Below are positions 42,315-64,000 of a stretch of 64,000 nucleotides of DNA, piece after piece. This DNA is from Nitrosopumilus sp. (GTDB taxonomy: Archaea > Thermoproteota > Nitrososphaeria > Nitrososphaerales > Nitrosopumilaceae): contig OZ242186.1 in assembly GCA_965205675.1 (NCBI GenBank), positions 864,001-928,000 of the forward strand, read 5' to 3'. Each line of letters starts with the position of its first letter. Positions within the stretch are counted from its first letter, which is position 1. A program made the translations under genes and the position numbers. The notes under the pieces are model-generated. The model ran no database searches. It saw only the letters and a program-made list of their open reading frames with translations, and was not told the origin of the DNA.

Positions 42315-42875
42315 TTAATCATAAATCATTAATTTTTTTTCTTCTAGTAATGCGTGTAAATTGTTCACAGAACGATATACATCTGGTTCTTGTTTAGCTC
42401 CTGTACAAACAAGTTTTCCTGATGAGAATAACAAAATGACTGTCTTTGGATCTAACATTCTATGAATGAGTCCTGGAAATTGTTCTGGTTCATACATACT
42501 TCGTGGCAGTGTTCTTGCAGCTTGTTCTAGATGGATTTTTCCACCTAAATTGATGGATGCCACAATATTCTGAATTGTAACTACTGCGTCTTTCTTCACT
42601 TTGATTCCTCCTTTCCGAAGTTTTTGTACTACTGTTTTTACTGCTTTTCTTGCCATTTCTTCGGATTTTGAACCCGTACACACCATTTTACCTGAAGTGA
42701 AAATCAATGTTGCCGTTTTTGGGATCTTTAATCTAAAAACTAGTCCTGGAAATTGATCCGGATGATACTCTACATCTGGAAATGTCTTGGTAATTTCATT
42801 CAAATCCATCTTCTGCATTACATCCGCAGAGGCTACAACATTTTCTACACTTACGATGGGTTTTGTTTGTGCCAT
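42315..42875 (-). CDS. tbp: TATA-box binding protein
   Basis: ENVVAS, YxPxQFPGL twice, SGKxVCTG twice; start reassigned to MAQTK. Confidence 0.97.
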   Translation of the reverse strand: MAQTKPIVSVENVVASADVMQKMDLNEITKTFPDVEYHPDQFPGLVFRLKIPKTATLIFTSGKMVCTGSKSEEMARKAVKTVVQKLRKGGIKVKKDAVVTIQNIVASINLGGKIHLEQAARTLPRSMYEPEQFPGLIHRMLDPKTVILLFSSGKLVCTGAKQEPDVYRSVNNLHALLEEKKLMIYD

Positions 42876-43009
42876 TTTGGCTTTTTCTGTATTTGAACTA
42901 TATAAAAGCACTCGCTATAATTTAGTCTCAAAAACATTCCTTTTTTGACTCGATATGGGTTTTTTTCTTTGAAATTAAGACGAATGTTTTAATTTAGTTC
43001 TAAAAAATC

Positions 43010-54029: not shown

Positions 54030-55761
54030 TTACAAAAAAGGCTACTCCTCCTATCACAAATCCCTTGGTGATTTTCAAGGAATTATCTAATGCTTTTGAA
54101 TAATCCTCGTAGATGCCCTGGCCCATCACTTTAACACTTGTCTCACTTTCTAAAATCTCAAATTTTGTGGTATTGATATTTTCTTCTGCATTTTCTGCAA
54201 TGGCAAAAAACCATTTTGCAAGTTTTTCTGCACTTGTAACTAATCCTAATTGATAATACCCATTTCTGTTTCTAGCTTTAACTGGAGCGTAATGTGTATC
54301 TGATGTGCAAATTTCTAATAATTGATAATTCTTTCTTGCAAAAATATCTGTGATTTTCTCTCTTACTCCGTTCTCCATGTTGTTTGCATCTGCCCATCCT
54401 AGAAAATATTTTTTCTGATTAATCCTCAGACAGATAATTCCTAATCCACCCATTCCCAAATCCTCGGTCCATACGTCCATGTCTTCTGTGTTTGAATACC
54501 CTAATTCTATTGGAAATCTTTCTTTTGAAATTAATGTGTCTAGACAAGATTTTGCAGCTTTTAACATGTCTTTCCCATCTTCTTTTGAAATCTCTTCGCC
54601 CATTGCATTATGACAATCAATGATCATTGTTCGTCCATAGTTTCGATTGTTTGCATATTGCTCAATCTCTGTTTTCATATAGCTTGGAATATCCTCCATA
54701 CCGTGTGGAGACAATGACAAAAATAATAGCGGGTTGTTTCCAAAAAGCAAGCCTGTAACTCGTGATTTATTTATTTGAACTGTTACTGGCTCTGTACATT
54801 CTACTCCTTCCTCTTTGACTTTACCATTCTCTAAATTTTTCAAATATTTTTCGACTTCATTTCTTGATGGGAGATTTAATGCATGATTTGATATGCTATG
54901 CATGACCATGGCTGATGATGCTAAATTCTTGTAAATTAGGTATGGAATATTACTTCCTCCTACTGGATGATATGGCCCCGGATGTATTCCCGGTAATACC
55001 ATGTTGAATTCTTTATCTCCTTTCTGTGTTGAGAATTTGATTTGTGATGTGGATACTTTGGTTTCATTAGAACGGCCTTCCATCAATTTTTCAGCGTCTT
55101 CAAAATCATTTCCTTGAGATGCCAGATATGCTTGAATTGTTTTATGTGTGCTCTCCATTGCCGGTCTTCCTGCTCTGTCTGTCAGTATTGACCATACACT
55201 TGCAATCATCATAAATGATATTCCATATGCCAACCCCGTAGGTTCAGTTAATATCAAAATCCATGATTCTTGTGGAATTAAGACTAGATACATTGCTAAT
55301 GGTTGAATCAAACAAATGGCCCAAGCTCTTTTGAGACTGACTCCTAATGTTGTTGTGTAAATCCCTATTCTAAAACTGGCAAATAATAATAATCCAAACA
55401 CTATGAAAAATAATTCAATATTTTTTGATAATACTATGCTTGATAAAATTCCCATTAACAATGTAACTGTCCAAAGCATGTTTGCAAAAAGTGATGAGTG
55501 TAAAGATTTTGAATATTCTTTCTTCATTGTAAATCTGGTGTCAAGTAATTGTGTTACATACAGCACTCCTAACACTAGTGGCAATCTGTACCAGTTATTC
55601 TCAAATCCTAATTCTGCTAAATATCCGAAATATACTGCAAATACTGTAACTGAAGCAACTACTAGTGAAACAACTAGTGAAAAATAATGTGATGATGGAT
55701 TCAGTAAAGTAAGGGAAAATCTATTGTGTATATTTGAAACATCATCTGGATCTTTTTCCAT
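54013..55761 (-). CDS. DUF2070 family membrane protein
   Basis: TM N-terminus, HPGP..GGS..P, DCHN, DANN, TSDTH. Confidence 0.88.
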   Translation of the reverse strand: MEKDPDDVSNIHNRFSLTLLNPSSHYFSLVVSLVVASVTVFAVYFGYLAELGFENNWYRLPLVLGVLYVTQLLDTRFTMKKEYSKSLHSSLFANMLWTVTLLMGILSSIVLSKNIELFFIVFGLLLFASFRIGIYTTTLGVSLKRAWAICLIQPLAMYLVLIPQESWILILTEPTGLAYGISFMMIASVWSILTDRAGRPAMESTHKTIQAYLASQGNDFEDAEKLMEGRSNETKVSTSQIKFSTQKGDKEFNMVLPGIHPGPYHPVGGSNIPYLIYKNLASSAMVMHSISNHALNLPSRNEVEKYLKNLENGKVKEEGVECTEPVTVQINKSRVTGLLFGNNPLLFLSLSPHGMEDIPSYMKTEIEQYANNRNYGRTMIIDCHNAMGEEISKEDGKDMLKAAKSCLDTLISKERFPIELGYSNTEDMDVWTEDLGMGGLGIICLRINQKKYFLGWADANNMENGVREKITDIFARKNYQLLEICTSDTHYAPVKARNRNGYYQLGLVTSAEKLAKWFFAIAENAEENINTTKFEILESETSVKVMGQGIYEDYSKALDNSLKITKGFVIGGVAFFVTSLFL

Positions 55762-57433: not shown

Positions 57434-58423
57434 TTGCAAAATTCAAATAAATTACTTCAATTAATTGGAATTCCTTTTACTGCATTACTTTCAGTGATTC
57501 TCGGTTTACTGCTAATTTCATTCCCTGTTGGGATTTATGTTATCTTTGAAACTGATGTTGGTGGTGATATCAACTATGAATACCCTTTAACTCATTTAGA
57601 ATTTTTTAAAGGAATTGATTTTTATCAAATTTTTACTGATGTGAGTGTTGGCGATGTCTTTGTTGTCTTGTGGATTTTTTATCTTGTTCTTTTTGTAATT
57701 GCTATTTTAGGACCACGTCGTGATTTTCTCAAAACTCTTTCTCTGATAATTTCAGTTGGGAAATATGAAACTCGAGTAAACTATATGATGGGAATCACCA
57801 AATGGTTTTCAATTTTAATTTTAGTTTCCACTCTGATAACTTTTCTTCAAAAATGGATAGGTGTTGATATTGTCCCCCCTTTAGTTGACAATGATTTAAT
57901 CCAATTTTTTTATGTTAGCTTATCTCCTCTGCTTGAAGAGTTTGGATTTCGTCTAATCTTGACCGGCATCCCGTTATTTGTATTATATTCATCAAAATCC
58001 TCTATGAGATATTTTATAAGATGTTTGTGGACGCCGGATGCTTTGGATATCTTTGATTCAAAAAAGGCCATTCTTCTGATAGTGTTTGTAGGTGTTCTTT
58101 TTGGATTTGCTCATATTGCGTTTGGTGATTCCTGGAGTGAGGGTAAATTTGCTCAAGCTGCTGCAGGCGGAATAATCTTAGGTTGGGTTTATCTTAGATA
58201 TGGTTTTGTTGCCTCTTTGTTGATTCACTGGGCTACCAATTATTTTGTTTTCTCGTATGCCAATTTTATTTCTCAGATTAATCGGATTTCAATCGAAGAT
58301 GCATTTTCACATTCGTTAATGTCTACTATGGAAATTTTGTTGTTAGCTGCAGGTTTATTTTCAATTGTTATTTTACTTGTCAATAGATTTTATTCTAAAA
58401 CAAAATCTACTCTAGAGGTCTAG
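57434..58423 (+). CDS. CPBP (CAAX/Abi) intramembrane metalloprotease
   Basis: PLLEEFGFR, FGFAH, HWATN. Confidence 0.9.
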   Translation: MQNSNKLLQLIGIPFTALLSVILGLLLISFPVGIYVIFETDVGGDINYEYPLTHLEFFKGIDFYQIFTDVSVGDVFVVLWIFYLVLFVIAILGPRRDFLKTLSLIISVGKYETRVNYMMGITKWFSILILVSTLITFLQKWIGVDIVPPLVDNDLIQFFYVSLSPLLEEFGFRLILTGIPLFVLYSSKSSMRYFIRCLWTPDALDIFDSKKAILLIVFVGVLFGFAHIAFGDSWSEGKFAQAAAGGIILGWVYLRYGFVASLLIHWATNYFVFSYANFISQINRISIEDAFSHSLMSTMEILLLAAGLFSIVILLVNRFYSKTKSTLEV

Positions 58424-59329
58424 TGCTATTTTCAATCCTTTGTATCTATTTCTGATTGTAACTTCTGTTACTCCGGCTGCTTCTGCAACATCTCTTTGTG
58501 TTTTATTTTCTCCATTGGTGACACATGCTACGTACAATGCAGCAGCAGCTAGCCCCATTGGATCTTTACCTGCTGAAATTTTTTGTTCTTCTGCTGTTTG
58601 TAGAATTTTTGTTGCTTTTCTTTTTGTTTTCTCAGATAATCCTGCTTTGCTTGCAATTCTTGAAATGCATTTTATTGGATTAACTACTGGCATCTTTAGA
58701 TTTAATTCCCGAAGTAATAATCGATAACATCTTGCAATATCTTTACGTTTGATGTTGCTTGCTTGACCAATGTCTTTTAGAGTTCTAGGCGTTTCTGTAT
58801 CTCTGCATGCTGCATAAAGTGCTGATGCAATTAATGCCGAGATGGAACGTCCTCTGACTAGTCCTTTCTCTAAGGCTTTTCTGTAAATGTAAGCTGCCTT
58901 TTCAATAACTGAATCCCCCACTGCAAGTTTATCTTTTAATCTGTCTAATTCACTAAATGCTTGTCTAAAGTTTCTATCCACTGGTTCATGAACCTGGCTT
59001 CTACTGTCCCATGTTCTTAGTCTTTCAATGGTGCTTTTCATTGCAGCAGTTAATGGCTTGCCTGTTGCATCTCTGTTTTGTGGATTGATTACAGTAGCTA
59101 GCCCCATATCGTGCATTGCAAGTGATGTTGGAACTCCTGCCCTGCTTTTGTTTTCACCTTCGTTTGAAAATGATCTCCATTCTGGGCCTGATTCTTCTAC
59201 TTTATCAGTAATGACAAATCCACACCTGCCACAAAAATTCTCACCTGTATTTGCATCTGTGACTAGGATTCCTTTTCCACATCTGGGACATTTGTCTTTT
59301 GGATTTGTTGCTTTAACCATTTTTTTCAA
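58412..59329 (-). CDS. tfb: Transcription initiation factor IIB
   Basis: CPRC..CGRCG Zn ribbon, GPEWRSF, cyclin repeats, VTEVTIRNRY. Confidence 0.97.
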   Translation of the reverse strand: MKKMVKATNPKDKCPRCGKGILVTDANTGENFCGRCGFVITDKVEESGPEWRSFSNEGENKSRAGVPTSLAMHDMGLATVINPQNRDATGKPLTAAMKSTIERLRTWDSRSQVHEPVDRNFRQAFSELDRLKDKLAVGDSVIEKAAYIYRKALEKGLVRGRSISALIASALYAACRDTETPRTLKDIGQASNIKRKDIARCYRLLLRELNLKMPVVNPIKCISRIASKAGLSEKTKRKATKILQTAEEQKISAGKDPMGLAAAALYVACVTNGENKTQRDVAEAAGVTEVTIRNRYKGLKIALDL

Positions 59330-59429
59330 AACCTTTTATGATAATATTTAACATTTTCTAAATTATTACTTATAAGTATTGTGGTCTTCGGTTCTGTGTA
59401 ATCTTCGAGACCCAAAATATTGATCTTCT

Positions 59430-60697
59430 TCAGATTGAATTTTCCTTATGTAGACTAGCATTTTCAATGATAGTTTTCCACTTGTTCTTACCGTCAATCT
59501 CAATCATTGAGGCCTCTGCTGGTGTTCTACCCTTTAATGCCTCATGTTTCTTTGTGAAATTATAGTAGACCTTCATTCCCTCGATAAGTGGCGTGTCTAT
59601 TCTCTTTAATCCCCTGAATACCTTTTCTCTGTCTCTAATAGTTCCATTGATTCGCTCCATCTTGTTGTTGTTATCACGATCTCTTTTACCTGCAATGTGA
59701 ATATGCCTAACGTGGTTTGTCTTCTTTCTAAAAACTTTCTTTGAGGATTTCATATATGCCTGTAATCCATCAGTTATGAAATTTCTTGGAGATTTCCCAG
59801 CTTGTCTTTTGGTCAATTCTAGTAAATTATCCGTATTATGATGAAACTTGTTATCTGCCATGTCTGAAGCCAACCAATATCTAGTATCATCATCCATTGA
59901 GGCAAATAGATAACACTGTTCACCATTTACCTTAACCCATACCTCATCAGCACGAAACCAGTTTCCAACTCTTGGAACTATGCAATTAAGATAAACTGAT
60001 GTTAGTTTGGAATATTGAGTTATCCAGTTATAGATAGTCTTGAATGATACATCAACACCCAACATCTCATAATGATCTGCAATTTTTCTAACGGACATTC
60101 CTGAATAGTACATCTGTAATGCTCCAGTTATGGTATTTTCATTTGACTGTTTTTTCCCAAAACCAAAGTTAGCAGTAAACCTACGTTTGCAGTCCTTACA
60201 CTTGAAAACTTGAACATCACCAGATTTAGTCTTACGCATACCCTTTTTTATTATCTTACCTGAATCACAGTATTTACACAGAGCTAGTTTGGAACGCTCT
60301 AAAATCTTGAAAGTATTGTTTTTCCTACATTGATTATTCTTGATTACATCTAAGACTATTTTGATGTGTTTACAGTCTGCTTTTCGGACTTGATGGTCTT
60401 TGCACTTACATCTTAACCCATTATCAGTTCTTGATACAGTATAGACGTCTTGCGTAATTATTTCTAGGCGTGAATTTTGCTGCAGGATTTTTCAAATGAG
60501 TTGAGAAATTTGAATTTTCAGGTATGAATTCTGTTAAAATACAAAATTTGAGAAAAAATCGCTATAATTACGCAAGAGGTCTTATAACGATTTTTTGGAT
60601 TCGTTTGAGAACGAACACTAAAATTATTTGAATCTAGTTGAGAACAATATCCTTTTGTTTCCATAATTTGTTTGGCTCTTTGTATTCTTGCGTTCAT
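59430..60697 (-). pseudogene. IS6-family DDE transposase with N-terminal SWIM and Zn-ribbon domains, interrupted by a MITE
   Basis: ADEVWVKV, ITDG, NN.MER.N; removing the MITE and one TAT restores a 374-aa ORF from ATG 60697 with CKC..CKH and CKYC..CKDC. Confidence 0.88.
60443..60582. mobile_element. 140-bp MITE with element C TIRs, copy 2
   Basis: Same TIRs and body as 19269-19408; TAT duplication. Confidence 0.92.
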
Positions 60698-60748
60698 GTA
60701 TAAAACCCCTTGAAAAAATAAATAGAACCAAGTGGGAAAAAAAGTACG

Positions 60749-60820
60749 TGGCTCAGATTGTACGATCCAATTTCGTCATTTCCCATGACGGATAAGAGGG
60801 TCACGGCTTCATCATTGCCA
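60749..60820 (-). ncRNA. Candidate box C/D / K-turn RNA in the transposase leader
   Basis: Minus strand tggca-ATGATGA...ATGACGA...CTGA-gcca with a terminal stem, internal hairpins and a T7 tract just downstream. Confidence 0.55.
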
Positions 60821-60938
60821 ATCATTTTTACTTGATTCATATTCTATATTATCCGTATGCTTATTTAATGCTTACTATTAACCGTATGCAAAACTAAACG
60901 ATCGGTTAATATGTATCTATGATGATTAAAAATATAAG

Positions 60939-61112
60939 TTGACTCGTTGGAAAAAAGACGAAACAAATTTTTCTGTAAAACTCTCTGATGATGGTAGACA
61001 TAGTACGATTTGCAGAATACCCAAACCGATCTTAGAATTCCTAAATAACCCTAATTCAATCAAATTTATAATAGATGGAAAAAAAATCATGGTTAGTAAA
61101 GGGAACAAATAA
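60939..61112 (+). CDS. 57-aa AbrB-like small regulator (TTG start, not in ORF track)
   Basis: MTRWKKDETNFSVKLSDDGRHSTICRIPKPILEFLNNPNSIKFIIDGKKIMV; ends 3 bp before the MTase. Confidence 0.65.
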   Translation: MTRWKKDETNFSVKLSDDGRHSTICRIPKPILEFLNNPNSIKFIIDGKKIMVSKGNK

Positions 61113-61115
61113 GAA

Positions 61116-61820
61116 TTGAGTGTTTTTTCGTCTACAAGAACATTGACTACGCCAAAAGTAACATTACCCCCACGTCTAAAAATCAACAAGAAATTAAAAA
61201 TGGATGGATTGAAATTTCTTTCAAACATACCTGATGATAGTATACCAGTATCTTTTTTTGATCCTCAATATAGAGGAGTATACGAACAAATGAAATATGG
61301 TAATGAAGATACTTCAAGAAATCACAAGCGAGTTGAAATTCCTCAAATGAGTAATAATACAATCTCTGAATTTATCTCTGAAATTGCACGTGTGTTGATT
61401 CCATCGGGACATTTGTTTTTATGGTTGGACAAATTCCATTTATGTACGGATCATAGAGAATGGTTTGAATCTACGTGCCTCAACACTGTTGATATGATAA
61501 CATGGAACAAGAAAAAGATTGGATTGGGGTATCGTGCAAGACATACTAGTGAGTTTTTATTAGTTTTACAAAAAGAACCTAAAAGAGCTAAAGGATGTTG
61601 GACATTGAGAAATATTCCTGATGTGTGGGATGAGAAAATCCCCCCCCCCCAACACAAAAAATATCATCATACAAAACCAATAGATTTACAGACACGACTT
61701 ATCAGAGCTGTAACCAATGAATTTGACTTGGTTGTTGATCCAGCAGCAGGTTCATTTTCAGTTTTAGAGGCTTGTAATACTGCTAATCGAAACTTTTTGG
61801 GTTGTGATATTAGAAGATAA
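61116..61820 (+). CDS. N6-adenine/N4-cytosine DNA methyltransferase, beta class
   Basis: Motif IV FFDPQY precedes HxxxKP and motif I VVDPAAGS..GCDI. Confidence 0.9.
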   Translation: MSVFSSTRTLTTPKVTLPPRLKINKKLKMDGLKFLSNIPDDSIPVSFFDPQYRGVYEQMKYGNEDTSRNHKRVEIPQMSNNTISEFISEIARVLIPSGHLFLWLDKFHLCTDHREWFESTCLNTVDMITWNKKKIGLGYRARHTSEFLLVLQKEPKRAKGCWTLRNIPDVWDEKIPPPQHKKYHHTKPIDLQTRLIRAVTNEFDLVVDPAAGSFSVLEACNTANRNFLGCDIRR

Positions 61821-62493
61821 AATGGTCAAATTATCAGATACAAAAATAAAGAAATGTCAAGGTGAGGCATATTTCAGATGTTTTGGGAATCAACAGTTAG
61901 CGTCTCTTTTGAGTAGAACTCAGTCATTGGTGATAAAAAATGGTAATGACCTTGAAGATATGATTTTAAAAAGAGTGAACATCATAGACAATCTTGATAA
62001 ATACCTTGAAACAACAAACCATCAAGGAATATCAGTAGTGCCTAAGACAAGTATTAAAAAATCAAACATCATCAAGTTTGATGGTGTTGAACCTGATTTC
62101 ATGGTGTTTGTAGAAAAGGATAACAAAAAAGCATGTCATTTGATAGAACTAAAAGATGGATGTGAATTTGATACAAAATCATCAAGTGCAGAAAAAGAAC
62201 ATTTGTATGAATTTATCAGAAAAAACGCACAAAAAATGCAATATACGTTTGATGGCCATATTTGTTGTTTTAATAAAACATCTCGTGAGGAAATAGTAAA
62301 AGGATTCAAGAATAAGATCACAAAAGACGATGCCTTGACAGGTCGTGAATTTTGTGAATTGTTAGAAATTGATTATGATGATATTGTCAACACTCGTAAA
62401 AAAGACAGAGAATCCAATTTGGATTATTTTCTTAAGGTTGCAATTATTGATAAAGAATTACATCTAAAACTAACAAGTTTACTTGCAAGATAG
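61804..62493 (+). CDS. Putative type II restriction endonuclease (PD-(D/E)xK)
   Basis: EPDF...IELKDG; overlaps the end of the MTase. Confidence 0.75.
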   Translation: MILEDKMVKLSDTKIKKCQGEAYFRCFGNQQLASLLSRTQSLVIKNGNDLEDMILKRVNIIDNLDKYLETTNHQGISVVPKTSIKKSNIIKFDGVEPDFMVFVEKDNKKACHLIELKDGCEFDTKSSSAEKEHLYEFIRKNAQKMQYTFDGHICCFNKTSREEIVKGFKNKITKDDALTGREFCELLEIDYDDIVNTRKKDRESNLDYFLKVAIIDKELHLKLTSLLAR

Positions 62494-62576
62494 CCAAACA
62501 TAACGTCTTTCCCTCAATCTGAAGAAGATCAATATTTTGGGTCTCGAAGATTACACAGAACCTGGTCTTCGGATTC

Positions 62577-63344
62577 TGTTGTTGTATCCCAAAATCAGTT
62601 CGTCCCTTATTTGACATCGTATTCTTCTCCTGTCTGCTCATCAATAACTCTTGTTCCTTTCCCTGGCATCTTTCTTGCATATGCCTTTACAGGGGTCTCA
62701 AGATTATCCCAGTCAAGTGACATGTGTGGCTTTATGTGGTTGTACCAGTGGACCAGCTCATCAATGGTGCCAAACCATTTCTGCTTTCTCTGAATCTCGC
62801 CGTGAAATCTTTCGAGCTTGCCATTGGTTTGAGGATGGTTCACTCTTGCCATGATGTGTTTTATTCCAAGTCTAACCAGTTCTTGCTCAAACTGTGATGC
62901 TCCTTTTCTCTTGTATTCTGATTGGTTTGCATAAAATTGGGAGCCATGATCAGTTAGAATTGATGCAGGCCTACCGTGCTTTGCAATTGCCTCATGTAAT
63001 ACTACAAGTGCGTTATCTGTTGTTGCCTCTGCAAACACTCCATGAGAAACGATAAACCTTGATGCGTCATCCTGGTAACACAGAAACCATCTGCCATCGT
63101 CTAACTGCTTCCAGTCAGTATGCCACATGGAGTTTGAATATGTCCTTTCATATCTAACCCACTTTCGCCTTCTCCTCTTCTTTGGCTGATCTTCTGCCAA
63201 CCCCTCATCTCTCATAATTTTGTGTATGGTATTGTGAGGTATGTGTGTTCCAGTGGTATCAATTATTTTCTCCAGGAATACTGCAGAACACCTGAACTTT
63301 TCAAATGTAGACTGGACAGTCTGTACCATCTGCTCTGTAATTAT
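62577..63344 (-). mobile_element. IS481-family element, 3' part (ORF 62607-63329), interrupted by IS110
   Basis: TGT terminus at 62577; WHTDWK, DDASR, TDHGSQF, PQTNGKLERF. Confidence 0.88.
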
Positions 63345-63545
63345 CCATGTGAATTGTTTTTATACATTTCCTCTCTTTCCATACATCAGGGCATGGCTTT
63401 CGCTAGAGAATGGTTTCAATCAAAAGATGGCAGACATGTATCCATACGAGACTATTCTCTCAATGCTATCTTCATCCTAGTTAGGATTGTTCGCAGTTAT
63501 TAGACGAGGCCTTGTCCCTCAATAATTACAACGCGACTTGCAGTC
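63345..63545 (-). ncRNA. Candidate IS110 bridge/seek RNA
   Basis: Predicted internal loop carries tgtaattat, the reverse complement of the insertion flank; a second segment atggata equals the element end/junction. Confidence 0.6.
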
Positions 63546-64000
63546 CTAACTATAATTTTGTACAAATTCTCTCCTCTCCTTTAACATCCAATAAATCACC
63601 CTCAGGATCTTTGATGCACCAGCTACTGCAGCTTTGGATGATCCTCTTTTCTTTTTAATGCGATTGTAAAATTTTGTAATGTCACTATCCTTGGCATGAA
63701 TTGCATGAGTGTGTATGCATTCTGTTAGAACCCATCTCAATGTCATGCTTCCCCTTTTTGTTATTCTGCCATGGTGTATTGTATCTGCAGAGTTTCTAAC
63801 TGATGGTACAACTCCTGCATATGCACACAGTTTGTGAGAATCATTGAATCTCTCAATATCTGCAATCTCTGATGCAATGACAAGCGAAGAATAATGCCCA
63901 ATTCCCGGAATCGAGTTTATCAAAATTGCATCAGGATTAACTTTTACAGCAGCATACACTTTGGAATTAATCTCTGCAATCTGTAAATTAAGGTGGCTGA
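63345..64000 (-). mobile_element. IS110-family element, 3' part; recombinase C-terminus 63546 to beyond 64000
   Basis: SIPGIG, EIADIERF, AYAGVVPSVRNSA, TKRGS..LR, KAAVA; about 200 bp of 3' non-coding DNA. Confidence 0.9.

Follow-up and report, generated by a model that had tools for sequence, protein, structure and literature searches.

Cargo-carrying, IS6-related transposons of archaea that insert in a fixed register to promoter TATA boxes

We describe here a 3,173 bp transposon at positions 59390–62562 of a 64,000-nucleotide stretch of the Nitrosopumilus sp. genome (GenBank assembly GCA_965205675.1, contig OZ242186.1, positions 864,001 to 928,000; hereafter the window), inserted at the promoter of tfb, the host gene for transcription factor B (TFB). 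The element is present as one copy in its own genome, and is best explained as a member, disabled by a miniature inverted-repeat transposable element (MITE), of an archaeal family of unit transposons related to the insertion sequence (IS) family IS6. The members are organised as units, exchange their cargo, insert with an 8 bp stagger, lie in a fixed register to the TATA boxes of real genes, and use the same sites repeatedly. These properties suggest a family that seeks out promoters and settles next to them while leaving them intact.

The two 49-nt arms of the element (Table 1) are 100% complementary and form the longest of 56 inverted pairs between positions 55000 and 64000 (the runner-up has 38 nt at 71%), and TGGTCTTC abuts both externally as an 8 bp target duplication. 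The perfect repeats and duplication noted in a sequence-only reading of this DNA are therefore as described there, and profile and cluster matches agree with the leftward transposase and the divergent rightward operon of AbrB-like, methyltransferase and nuclease genes that it had listed. The transposase is matched in 54 of 121 relatives. A scan across species confirmed 556 hits, the best 80 of which come from Nitrososphaerota, Bathyarchaeia, Asgard, Methanoperedens, one unassigned archaeon and two short bacterial-labelled contigs. Of 240 examined hits, 108 sit between IS6-type ends with a perfect 8 bp duplication, which was first found with no length or motif filter other than 7–10 bp, and these loci reduce to 93 non-identical elements of 1,970–8,093 bp with inverted repeats of median 25 bp (range 8–150). 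The end motif GG..cTGT came out of an unfiltered repeat search, and the window ends read GGTTCTGT; end positions 9–14, in a set filtered on the end motif, are unlike the bacterial IS6 consensus.

A further open reading frame (ORF) of at least 100 aa is missing in just five of the 93 elements. Most cargo is placed upstream of the transposase, and in 55 elements a small divergent ORF stands at its head, with Pfam MazE matched by two of 11 such ORFs scanned. Restriction-modification (R-M) genes of types I, II, IIG or III occur in at least 27 of the 93, a lower bound in that 48 of 58 and 96 of 106 larger ORFs were scanned and ten elements were unscanned; the label of one element (L060) derives from BLAST clustering alone. 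Four genomes hold whole units (2.6–5.0 kb) at two loci with 99.96–100% identity, and the elements therefore move with their cargo. The cargo is also exchanged, because the nearest relative of the window transposase (86% identical) has no R-M label and because in one genome (G190; L307 7760–7791) a broken copy of the R-M pair stops about 45 bp short of a different IS6-like end; in a quick tree, used descriptively and built on 91 rows with two elements left out for short alignments, the R-M labels are spread over several clades. The sequence-only reading had proposed an archaeal unit-transposon lineage that spreads defence or addiction cassettes, and siblings bounded by terminal repeats are indeed abundant, with varying cargo that is often of defence type; the proposal is thus supported. 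R-M genes are the commonest recognisable cargo, but most cargo is not R-M, and the proposal did not include the most striking property, insertion at a fixed distance from TATA boxes. The family provides a common route by which archaea swap R-M systems of all four types.

The register was scored with an exact hexamer (TTWWAW/TWWAWA), with motif and offset fixed after a discovery set and before scoring a hold-out of loci new to the analysis; each group of orthologous sites contributed a single count, and a flank consisting of another element's end was not scored. The hexamer is present at offset 6 at 12 of 30 discovery sites (p 1e-11) and 17 of 44 hold-out sites (p 2e-15), compared with 2.8% of 2,913 intergenic controls, and the hold-out counts of 12, 17 and 10 at offsets 5–7 contrast with four or fewer at every other offset. 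Gene-side flanks have it in 17 of 30 cases and flanks on the other side in four of 26 (p 0.002), and an ORF-opening ATG lies 34–39 bp out at 14 of 74 sites as against 34 of 1,825 controls (1.9%). The orientation of the elements is free (22 versus 17), and TATA-positive sites are scattered across the whole quick tree.

One explanation is that insertion is near-random and that the register comes solely from selection for harmless sites. Selection is at work, because family and MITE insertions avoid ORFs alike (12 of 63 and five of 27 sites fall within them, in a genome that is 79% coding). However, selection alone would allow any distance upstream whereas the peak is 3 bp wide, and other tolerated insertions of the same genome have no such peak, with the hexamer at offset 6 at none of 27 MITE sites and no register at 12 IS481 sites; the narrowness of the register largely refutes this explanation, and we give it hardly any credence. 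Homing to existing IS6 ends, with a promoter neighbourhood inherited from a few ancient founders, is also highly unlikely. It would account for the 22 of 93 elements that adjoin another end across one shared 8-mer, and it has a parallel in IS26-type elements, for which targeted insertion at resident copies is described (PMC7986276), but the register is present at solitary insertions, with the hexamer at offsets 5–7 on 29% of flanks at the 63 of 74 distinct sites that have no adjacent end.

Particular promoters are used again and again. A box of the form TTATAAG, ATATAAG or TTATAAA is present at the tfb position in 29 of 29 relatives compared. In 22 of them cofC lies directly upstream of tfb, so that the usual state of the site is without an insertion; no synteny of the R-M genes is seen there, in agreement with the mobility attributed to them by the sequence-only reading. 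A different complete element of 3,328 bp occupies the tfb site of another genome (G197) in the same register, followed by ordinary empty-site sequence, and IS6-like or decayed ends are found there in four of the 29 relatives. Insertions at the radA promoter are present in 10 genomes, orthologous promoters are hit with differing 8-mers, and a dnaG promoter is occupied by a stack of elements. Within stacks the repeat quality is higher promoter-proximally in two and lower in two, and polarity is mixed.

These observations can be accommodated in a model in which a single transposase of about 370 aa, with a SWIM finger, zinc ribbon, helix-turn-helix (HTH) and DDE domain, would act on two GGTTCTGT-type ends and move everything between them. 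Comparison of sites establishes an 8 bp staggered insertion, and the chemistry, by analogy with IS6, may be replicative through cointegrates, which fits both the elements whose ends are good but whose flanks do not match and the presence of identical copies at two loci. Whichever way an element points, the 8 bp target has its near edge about 5 bp upstream of a host TATA box, such that both the box and the bases upstream of it survive, the host gene retains its promoter, and the site can be reused to give stacks. Cargo sits mostly in a divergent operon, probably controlled by the small regulator at its head, and is swapped freely. The landmark could be a bent promoter bound by TATA-binding protein (TBP), probably as TBP-TFB, and read through tethering or DNA shape; the chances that positioning depends on TBP or TBP-TFB seem to us evenly balanced. 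The TFB recognition element (BRE) consists of nine bases upstream of the TATA box (PMC2699501), so that the target overlaps the TFB footprint and the transposase would need to contact or displace TFB.

There is precedent for TBP-guided integration in the yeast element Ty3 (bioRxiv 2021.07.27.453949), and a fixed register to the TATA boxes of real genes, as a Ty3-like system would have, is what we observe. Ty3 with TFIIIB shares with the archaeal family a DDE enzyme, a fixed position relative to a TATA box (set in Ty3 by the TATA-bound factor) and a host gene left unharmed. However, Ty3 is a long-terminal-repeat retroelement that docks in the interval from the TATA box to the start site, with contacts of its C-terminal domain and chromodomain described by cryo-EM, whereas the archaeal elements are DNA transposons that insert upstream of the box.

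Several observations weigh against guidance by the basal machinery. No exact hexamer is present at offsets 5–7 at 33 of the 74 sites (about 45%), one-sidedness is not significant (both flanks carry the hexamer at two sites, with 5.1 expected, P 0.10), and a BRE-like A two bases out (20 of 25) is also raised on the non-gene flank (0.54). Related insertions are not independent, and those that survive have passed through selection. Moreover, a control set of short archaeal IS6 elements from related orders (667–782 bp, 25% identical, with neither SWIM finger nor zinc ribbon; loci L315–L344 of G086, with 69 loci, L346–L414, as the source of a hold-out fixed in advance) has a register of its own, with the hexamer at offsets 10–12 at 12 of 25 sites in G086 and 16 of 27 in the hold-out, and with A/T at 82–91% when both flanks are pooled. 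These elements have no hexamer register at offsets 5–7 in either set and no gene-side bias (two of 13 versus five of 13), and their ATG signal is weak (three of 52). An IS6 core lacking a SWIM finger is thus able to read A/T tracts lying a fixed distance away, and because the hexamer of the short elements has no clear link to genes, direct readout of DNA is a rival to guidance by TBP and TFB. In such a scheme the transposase would itself recognise bendable, A/T-rich DNA a set distance from the cut, unaided by any host protein; TATA boxes would just be the most suitable stretches of this kind, and insertions that come between a promoter and its gene would be purged by selection. The A at offset 2, raised on both flanks, and the lack of significant one-sidedness in the long elements also fit this scheme, which we regard as a serious possibility, though some way short of even. 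It does not readily explain why an ATG at 33–40 bp is fivefold commoner at TATA-positive flanks (11 of 43) than at intergenic hexamers generally (5% of the 11,228 in the window's genome, G000; p 6e-6), or why the radA and tfb promoters are hit in many genomes when G000 alone offers that many hexamer positions.

Relative to the short IS6 elements, the long elements place the A/T hexamer 5 bp closer and do so on real promoters, giving two registers, +6 for the long elements and +11 for the short. In a bolder scenario, to which we give a chance just below even, the basal machinery (TBP, with or in place of TFB) would be the target selector, as a prokaryotic counterpart of Ty3-TFIIIB; the SWIM and zinc modules would shift the landing site 5 bp into the TFB footprint as compared with the short IS6, and each insertion would recreate its target, making the promoters of core genes into growing, integron-like arrays of defence and accessory cassettes. 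The landing rule would represent a way of choosing safe sites that is new for prokaryotes, and might be put to use for delivering genes into archaea without harm to promoters.

Other descriptions of the target were tried and set aside. A TATA matrix trained by expectation-maximisation on upstream regions of the host ended up as a run of T (eight of 30 at offset 5, p 9e-4) and the fixed motif was used instead; tRNA genes are in just two flanks and are not the main target; solitary flanks are unlike GGTTCTGT, so that the target does not mimic the element's own end; and neither strict one-sidedness nor the BRE signature came through the controls cleanly.

Table 1. Features of the transposon and its tfb insertion site (window coordinates)
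Feature	Coordinates	Strand	Basis
Host transcription factor B gene tfb, whose own promoter is targeted	58412..59317	-	NCBIfam PRK00423, E 1.5e-112
tfb TATA box CTTATAAG, 5 bp off the target duplication edge, intact after insertion	59369..59376	-	sequence
Target duplication, left copy TGGTCTTC (8 bp)	59382..59389	.	sequence
49 bp terminal inverted repeat at transposase 3' end; begins GGTTCTGT, takes in transposase stop codon	59390..59438	.	sequence
Transposase 3' part (336 aa): most of SWIM finger, zinc ribbon, HTH, DDE domain	59430..60442	-	Pfam DDE_Tnp_IS240; alignment with intact relatives
140 bp MITE inside transposase, with 3 bp duplication TAT	60443..60582	.	
Transposase 5' part (38 aa), where the SWIM domain begins	60583..60697	-	resembles N-termini of intact relatives
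Small regulator (57 aa), AbrB/MazE-like; first in cargo operon, divergent from transposase	60939..61112	+	Atlas 0.90
Beta-class amino-methyltransferase (234 aa), DPQYR motif IV (HhaII type); C11 tract at 61640–61650	61116..61820	+	PADLOC
Type II PD-(D/E)xK restriction endonuclease, start ATG at 61822	61822..62493	+	PADLOC; fold match EcoO109I; Atlas HinfI-family lead
49 bp terminal inverted repeat at cargo end	62514..62562	.	sequence
Target duplication, right copy (8 bp)	62563..62570	.	

The transposase of the window copy has an IS240/IS6 DDE domain (Pfam DDE_Tnp_IS240, E 1e-13), and its two parts form a single frame once the MITE site is bridged. The MITE has 27 full-length copies in the genome, 21 with a perfect 3 bp duplication, and its probable parent is an IS5-like element of 1,077 bp at C1:1588789–1589865, the ends of which are near-identical. 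Immobilisation of the 3.2-kb copy by the MITE insertion is plausible, since the start of the SWIM domain is severed and the genome's remaining near-complete transposases of this family are 31% identical and have different ends. A MITE-free or excised form was not seen in sequencing-run contigs, although absence there proves nothing. Among 114 intact family proteins, all match PF13610 and 46 match Pfam SWIM, and a CxCxD..CxH motif, two CxxC pairs and the D-D-E triad (D202, D261 and E296) are invariant. Against the IS6 model NF033587 (cut-off 125) two intact members score 125.6 and 125.9, a member of a long clade 108.8 and the truncated window ORF 104.3, and a structure model of the transposase matches ISCth4 and retroviral integrases via the DDE core alone.

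The cargo of this copy pairs an amino-methyltransferase and a PD-(D/E)xK endonuclease side by side, both intact. The 57-aa protein that precedes them falls in an Atlas cluster named AbrB/MazE/SpoVT-like (score 0.90) and has no Pfam or NCBIfam match. PADLOC identifies a Type II methyltransferase (E 2e-80), in which DPQY precedes FxGxG in the beta order, and a Type II endonuclease (E 2e-43). In the endonuclease, P97-D98 and K117 are invariant and E115 is conserved in at least 90% of 40 homologues; its model (pLDDT 92.7) has EcoO109I as the top fold match (E 3e-4), and PDB sequence searches gave no match. The DPQYR motif IV is that described for M.HhaII (PMC4190342). For the endonuclease the Atlas lead is to the Pfam family of HinfI, at 22% of one cluster, and the likeness of the pair to HhaII/HinfI systems is thus one of motif, PD-(D/E)xK class and Atlas leads. 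HhaII- and HinfI-type systems are specific for GANTC, and the HhaII-like pair of this copy probably methylates and cuts this sequence; weighing against this assignment, GANTC is not avoided in the genome (observed/expected 1.15). If the model outlined above is correct, this pair is now stranded upstream of tfb. The same R-M pair is present on a Campylobacter plasmid. The endonuclease is present in one of 150 other genomes of the genus, that with the broken copy beside an IS6-like end, and two short, weak fragment matches occur in a second; the pattern that would have refuted the sequence-only reading, with siblings absent and the R-M genes syntenic in relatives that lack the transposase, is not observed. 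The C11 tract within the methyltransferase gene corresponds to C7 in the G190 homologue, and close homologues are 2 aa shorter; one contig of another sample has one base fewer in the tract, possibly through phase variation or homopolymer error.

The IS6/IS26 family (IS26, IS257, IS240 and the long clostridial clade h, for example ISCpe7) shares with these elements an HTH-DDE transposase, GG..cTGT ends and an 8 bp duplication, and the window GGTTCTGT agrees with the IS6 end consensus GGTTCTGTTGCAAA in its GG start and cTGT. However, IS6 elements are 0.7–1.8 kb and are filled by the transposase with no passengers, and have short repeats of 14–20 bp, whereas the family described here spans 2–8 kb, has 49 bp repeats in this copy, and has an N-terminal SWIM finger, cargo inside its ends and the fixed TATA register. 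Given these departures in size, repeat length and simplicity of organisation, we do not file the element as an ordinary IS6. The best plasmid hit to the transposase is ISCpe7 (30% over residues 123–355); none of 30 listed plasmid hits covers the SWIM finger, and none of 3,515 records covers 80% of the query. In transporter IS (tIS), such as the IS1595 family, one transposase and passenger genes lie between terminal repeats, and the element behaves as an IS6 grown into a tIS, although the transposase family of tIS differs, the IS6 model scoring highest here, and we know of no promoter register in tIS.

Varani et al. put just one IS6 member with a passenger on record (PMC7986276), and Table 5 of Harmer and Hall lists 37 archaeal IS6 in ISfinder as of 2019, at 671–853 bp (PMC6807381). 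The thaumarchaeal IS treated by Krupovic et al. (2019, PMC6563490) have one or two genes, and that mobile-element survey states that passenger-carrying composite transposons were undetected in archaea. A survey from 2026 that covered 17,237 archaeal genomes does not use the words TATA, promoter or passenger in its main text. The bacterial R-M units described by Furuta et al. resemble the window element in having an R-M cassette, inverted repeats (26–65 bp) and an 8 bp duplication, but they have no transposase, which here lies inside the unit, and no archaeal case survived their screen. We found no paper describing the family or its TATA rule, in a search that did not extend to supplements, subscription journals, ISfinder or REBASE, and a family of cargo transposons with a promoter-landing rule is apparently unpublished.

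Several further observations concern the locus and the family. Between the element and cofC, which in relatives lies about 55 bp from the tfb insertion site, IS481, IS110-like and other IS genes occupy about 5.6 kb (62571–64000 and on to G000:C1 932149). A TBP gene is present in the window at 42315–42911, and the genome has several TBP and TFB paralogues. Two family members are on bacterial-labelled contigs of 4–6 kb with TATA-like flanks (L205 and L229), which are possibly mis-binned archaeal DNA. Two long elements of the host genome (L001 and L002; G000:C1:981548–985960 and 1827040–1832921) have transposases of about 445 aa and TACACTGT ends, their cargo being one Type II and one Type III R-M system; L001 has an 8 bp duplication and is nested in a larger inverted duplication. 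The TACACTGT-ended long clade has one duplication-flanked site only, which lacks a TATA hexamer. Odd cargo elsewhere in the family includes proteasome-subunit-like, RelA/SpoT, Panacea antitoxin and NurA domains, as well as a SIR2-like ORF, recognised by eye, at the tfb site of G015 (L048:12975–13784, L219:1196–2464, L063:9249–9731, L156:5054–5887 and L308). Finally, a decayed sister of the window element (L003 2949–6258; G000:C1:1297949–1301258) retains part of the SWIM domain, an AbrB-like gene at 75% identity, a methylase of Type II and an ORF of 362 aa.

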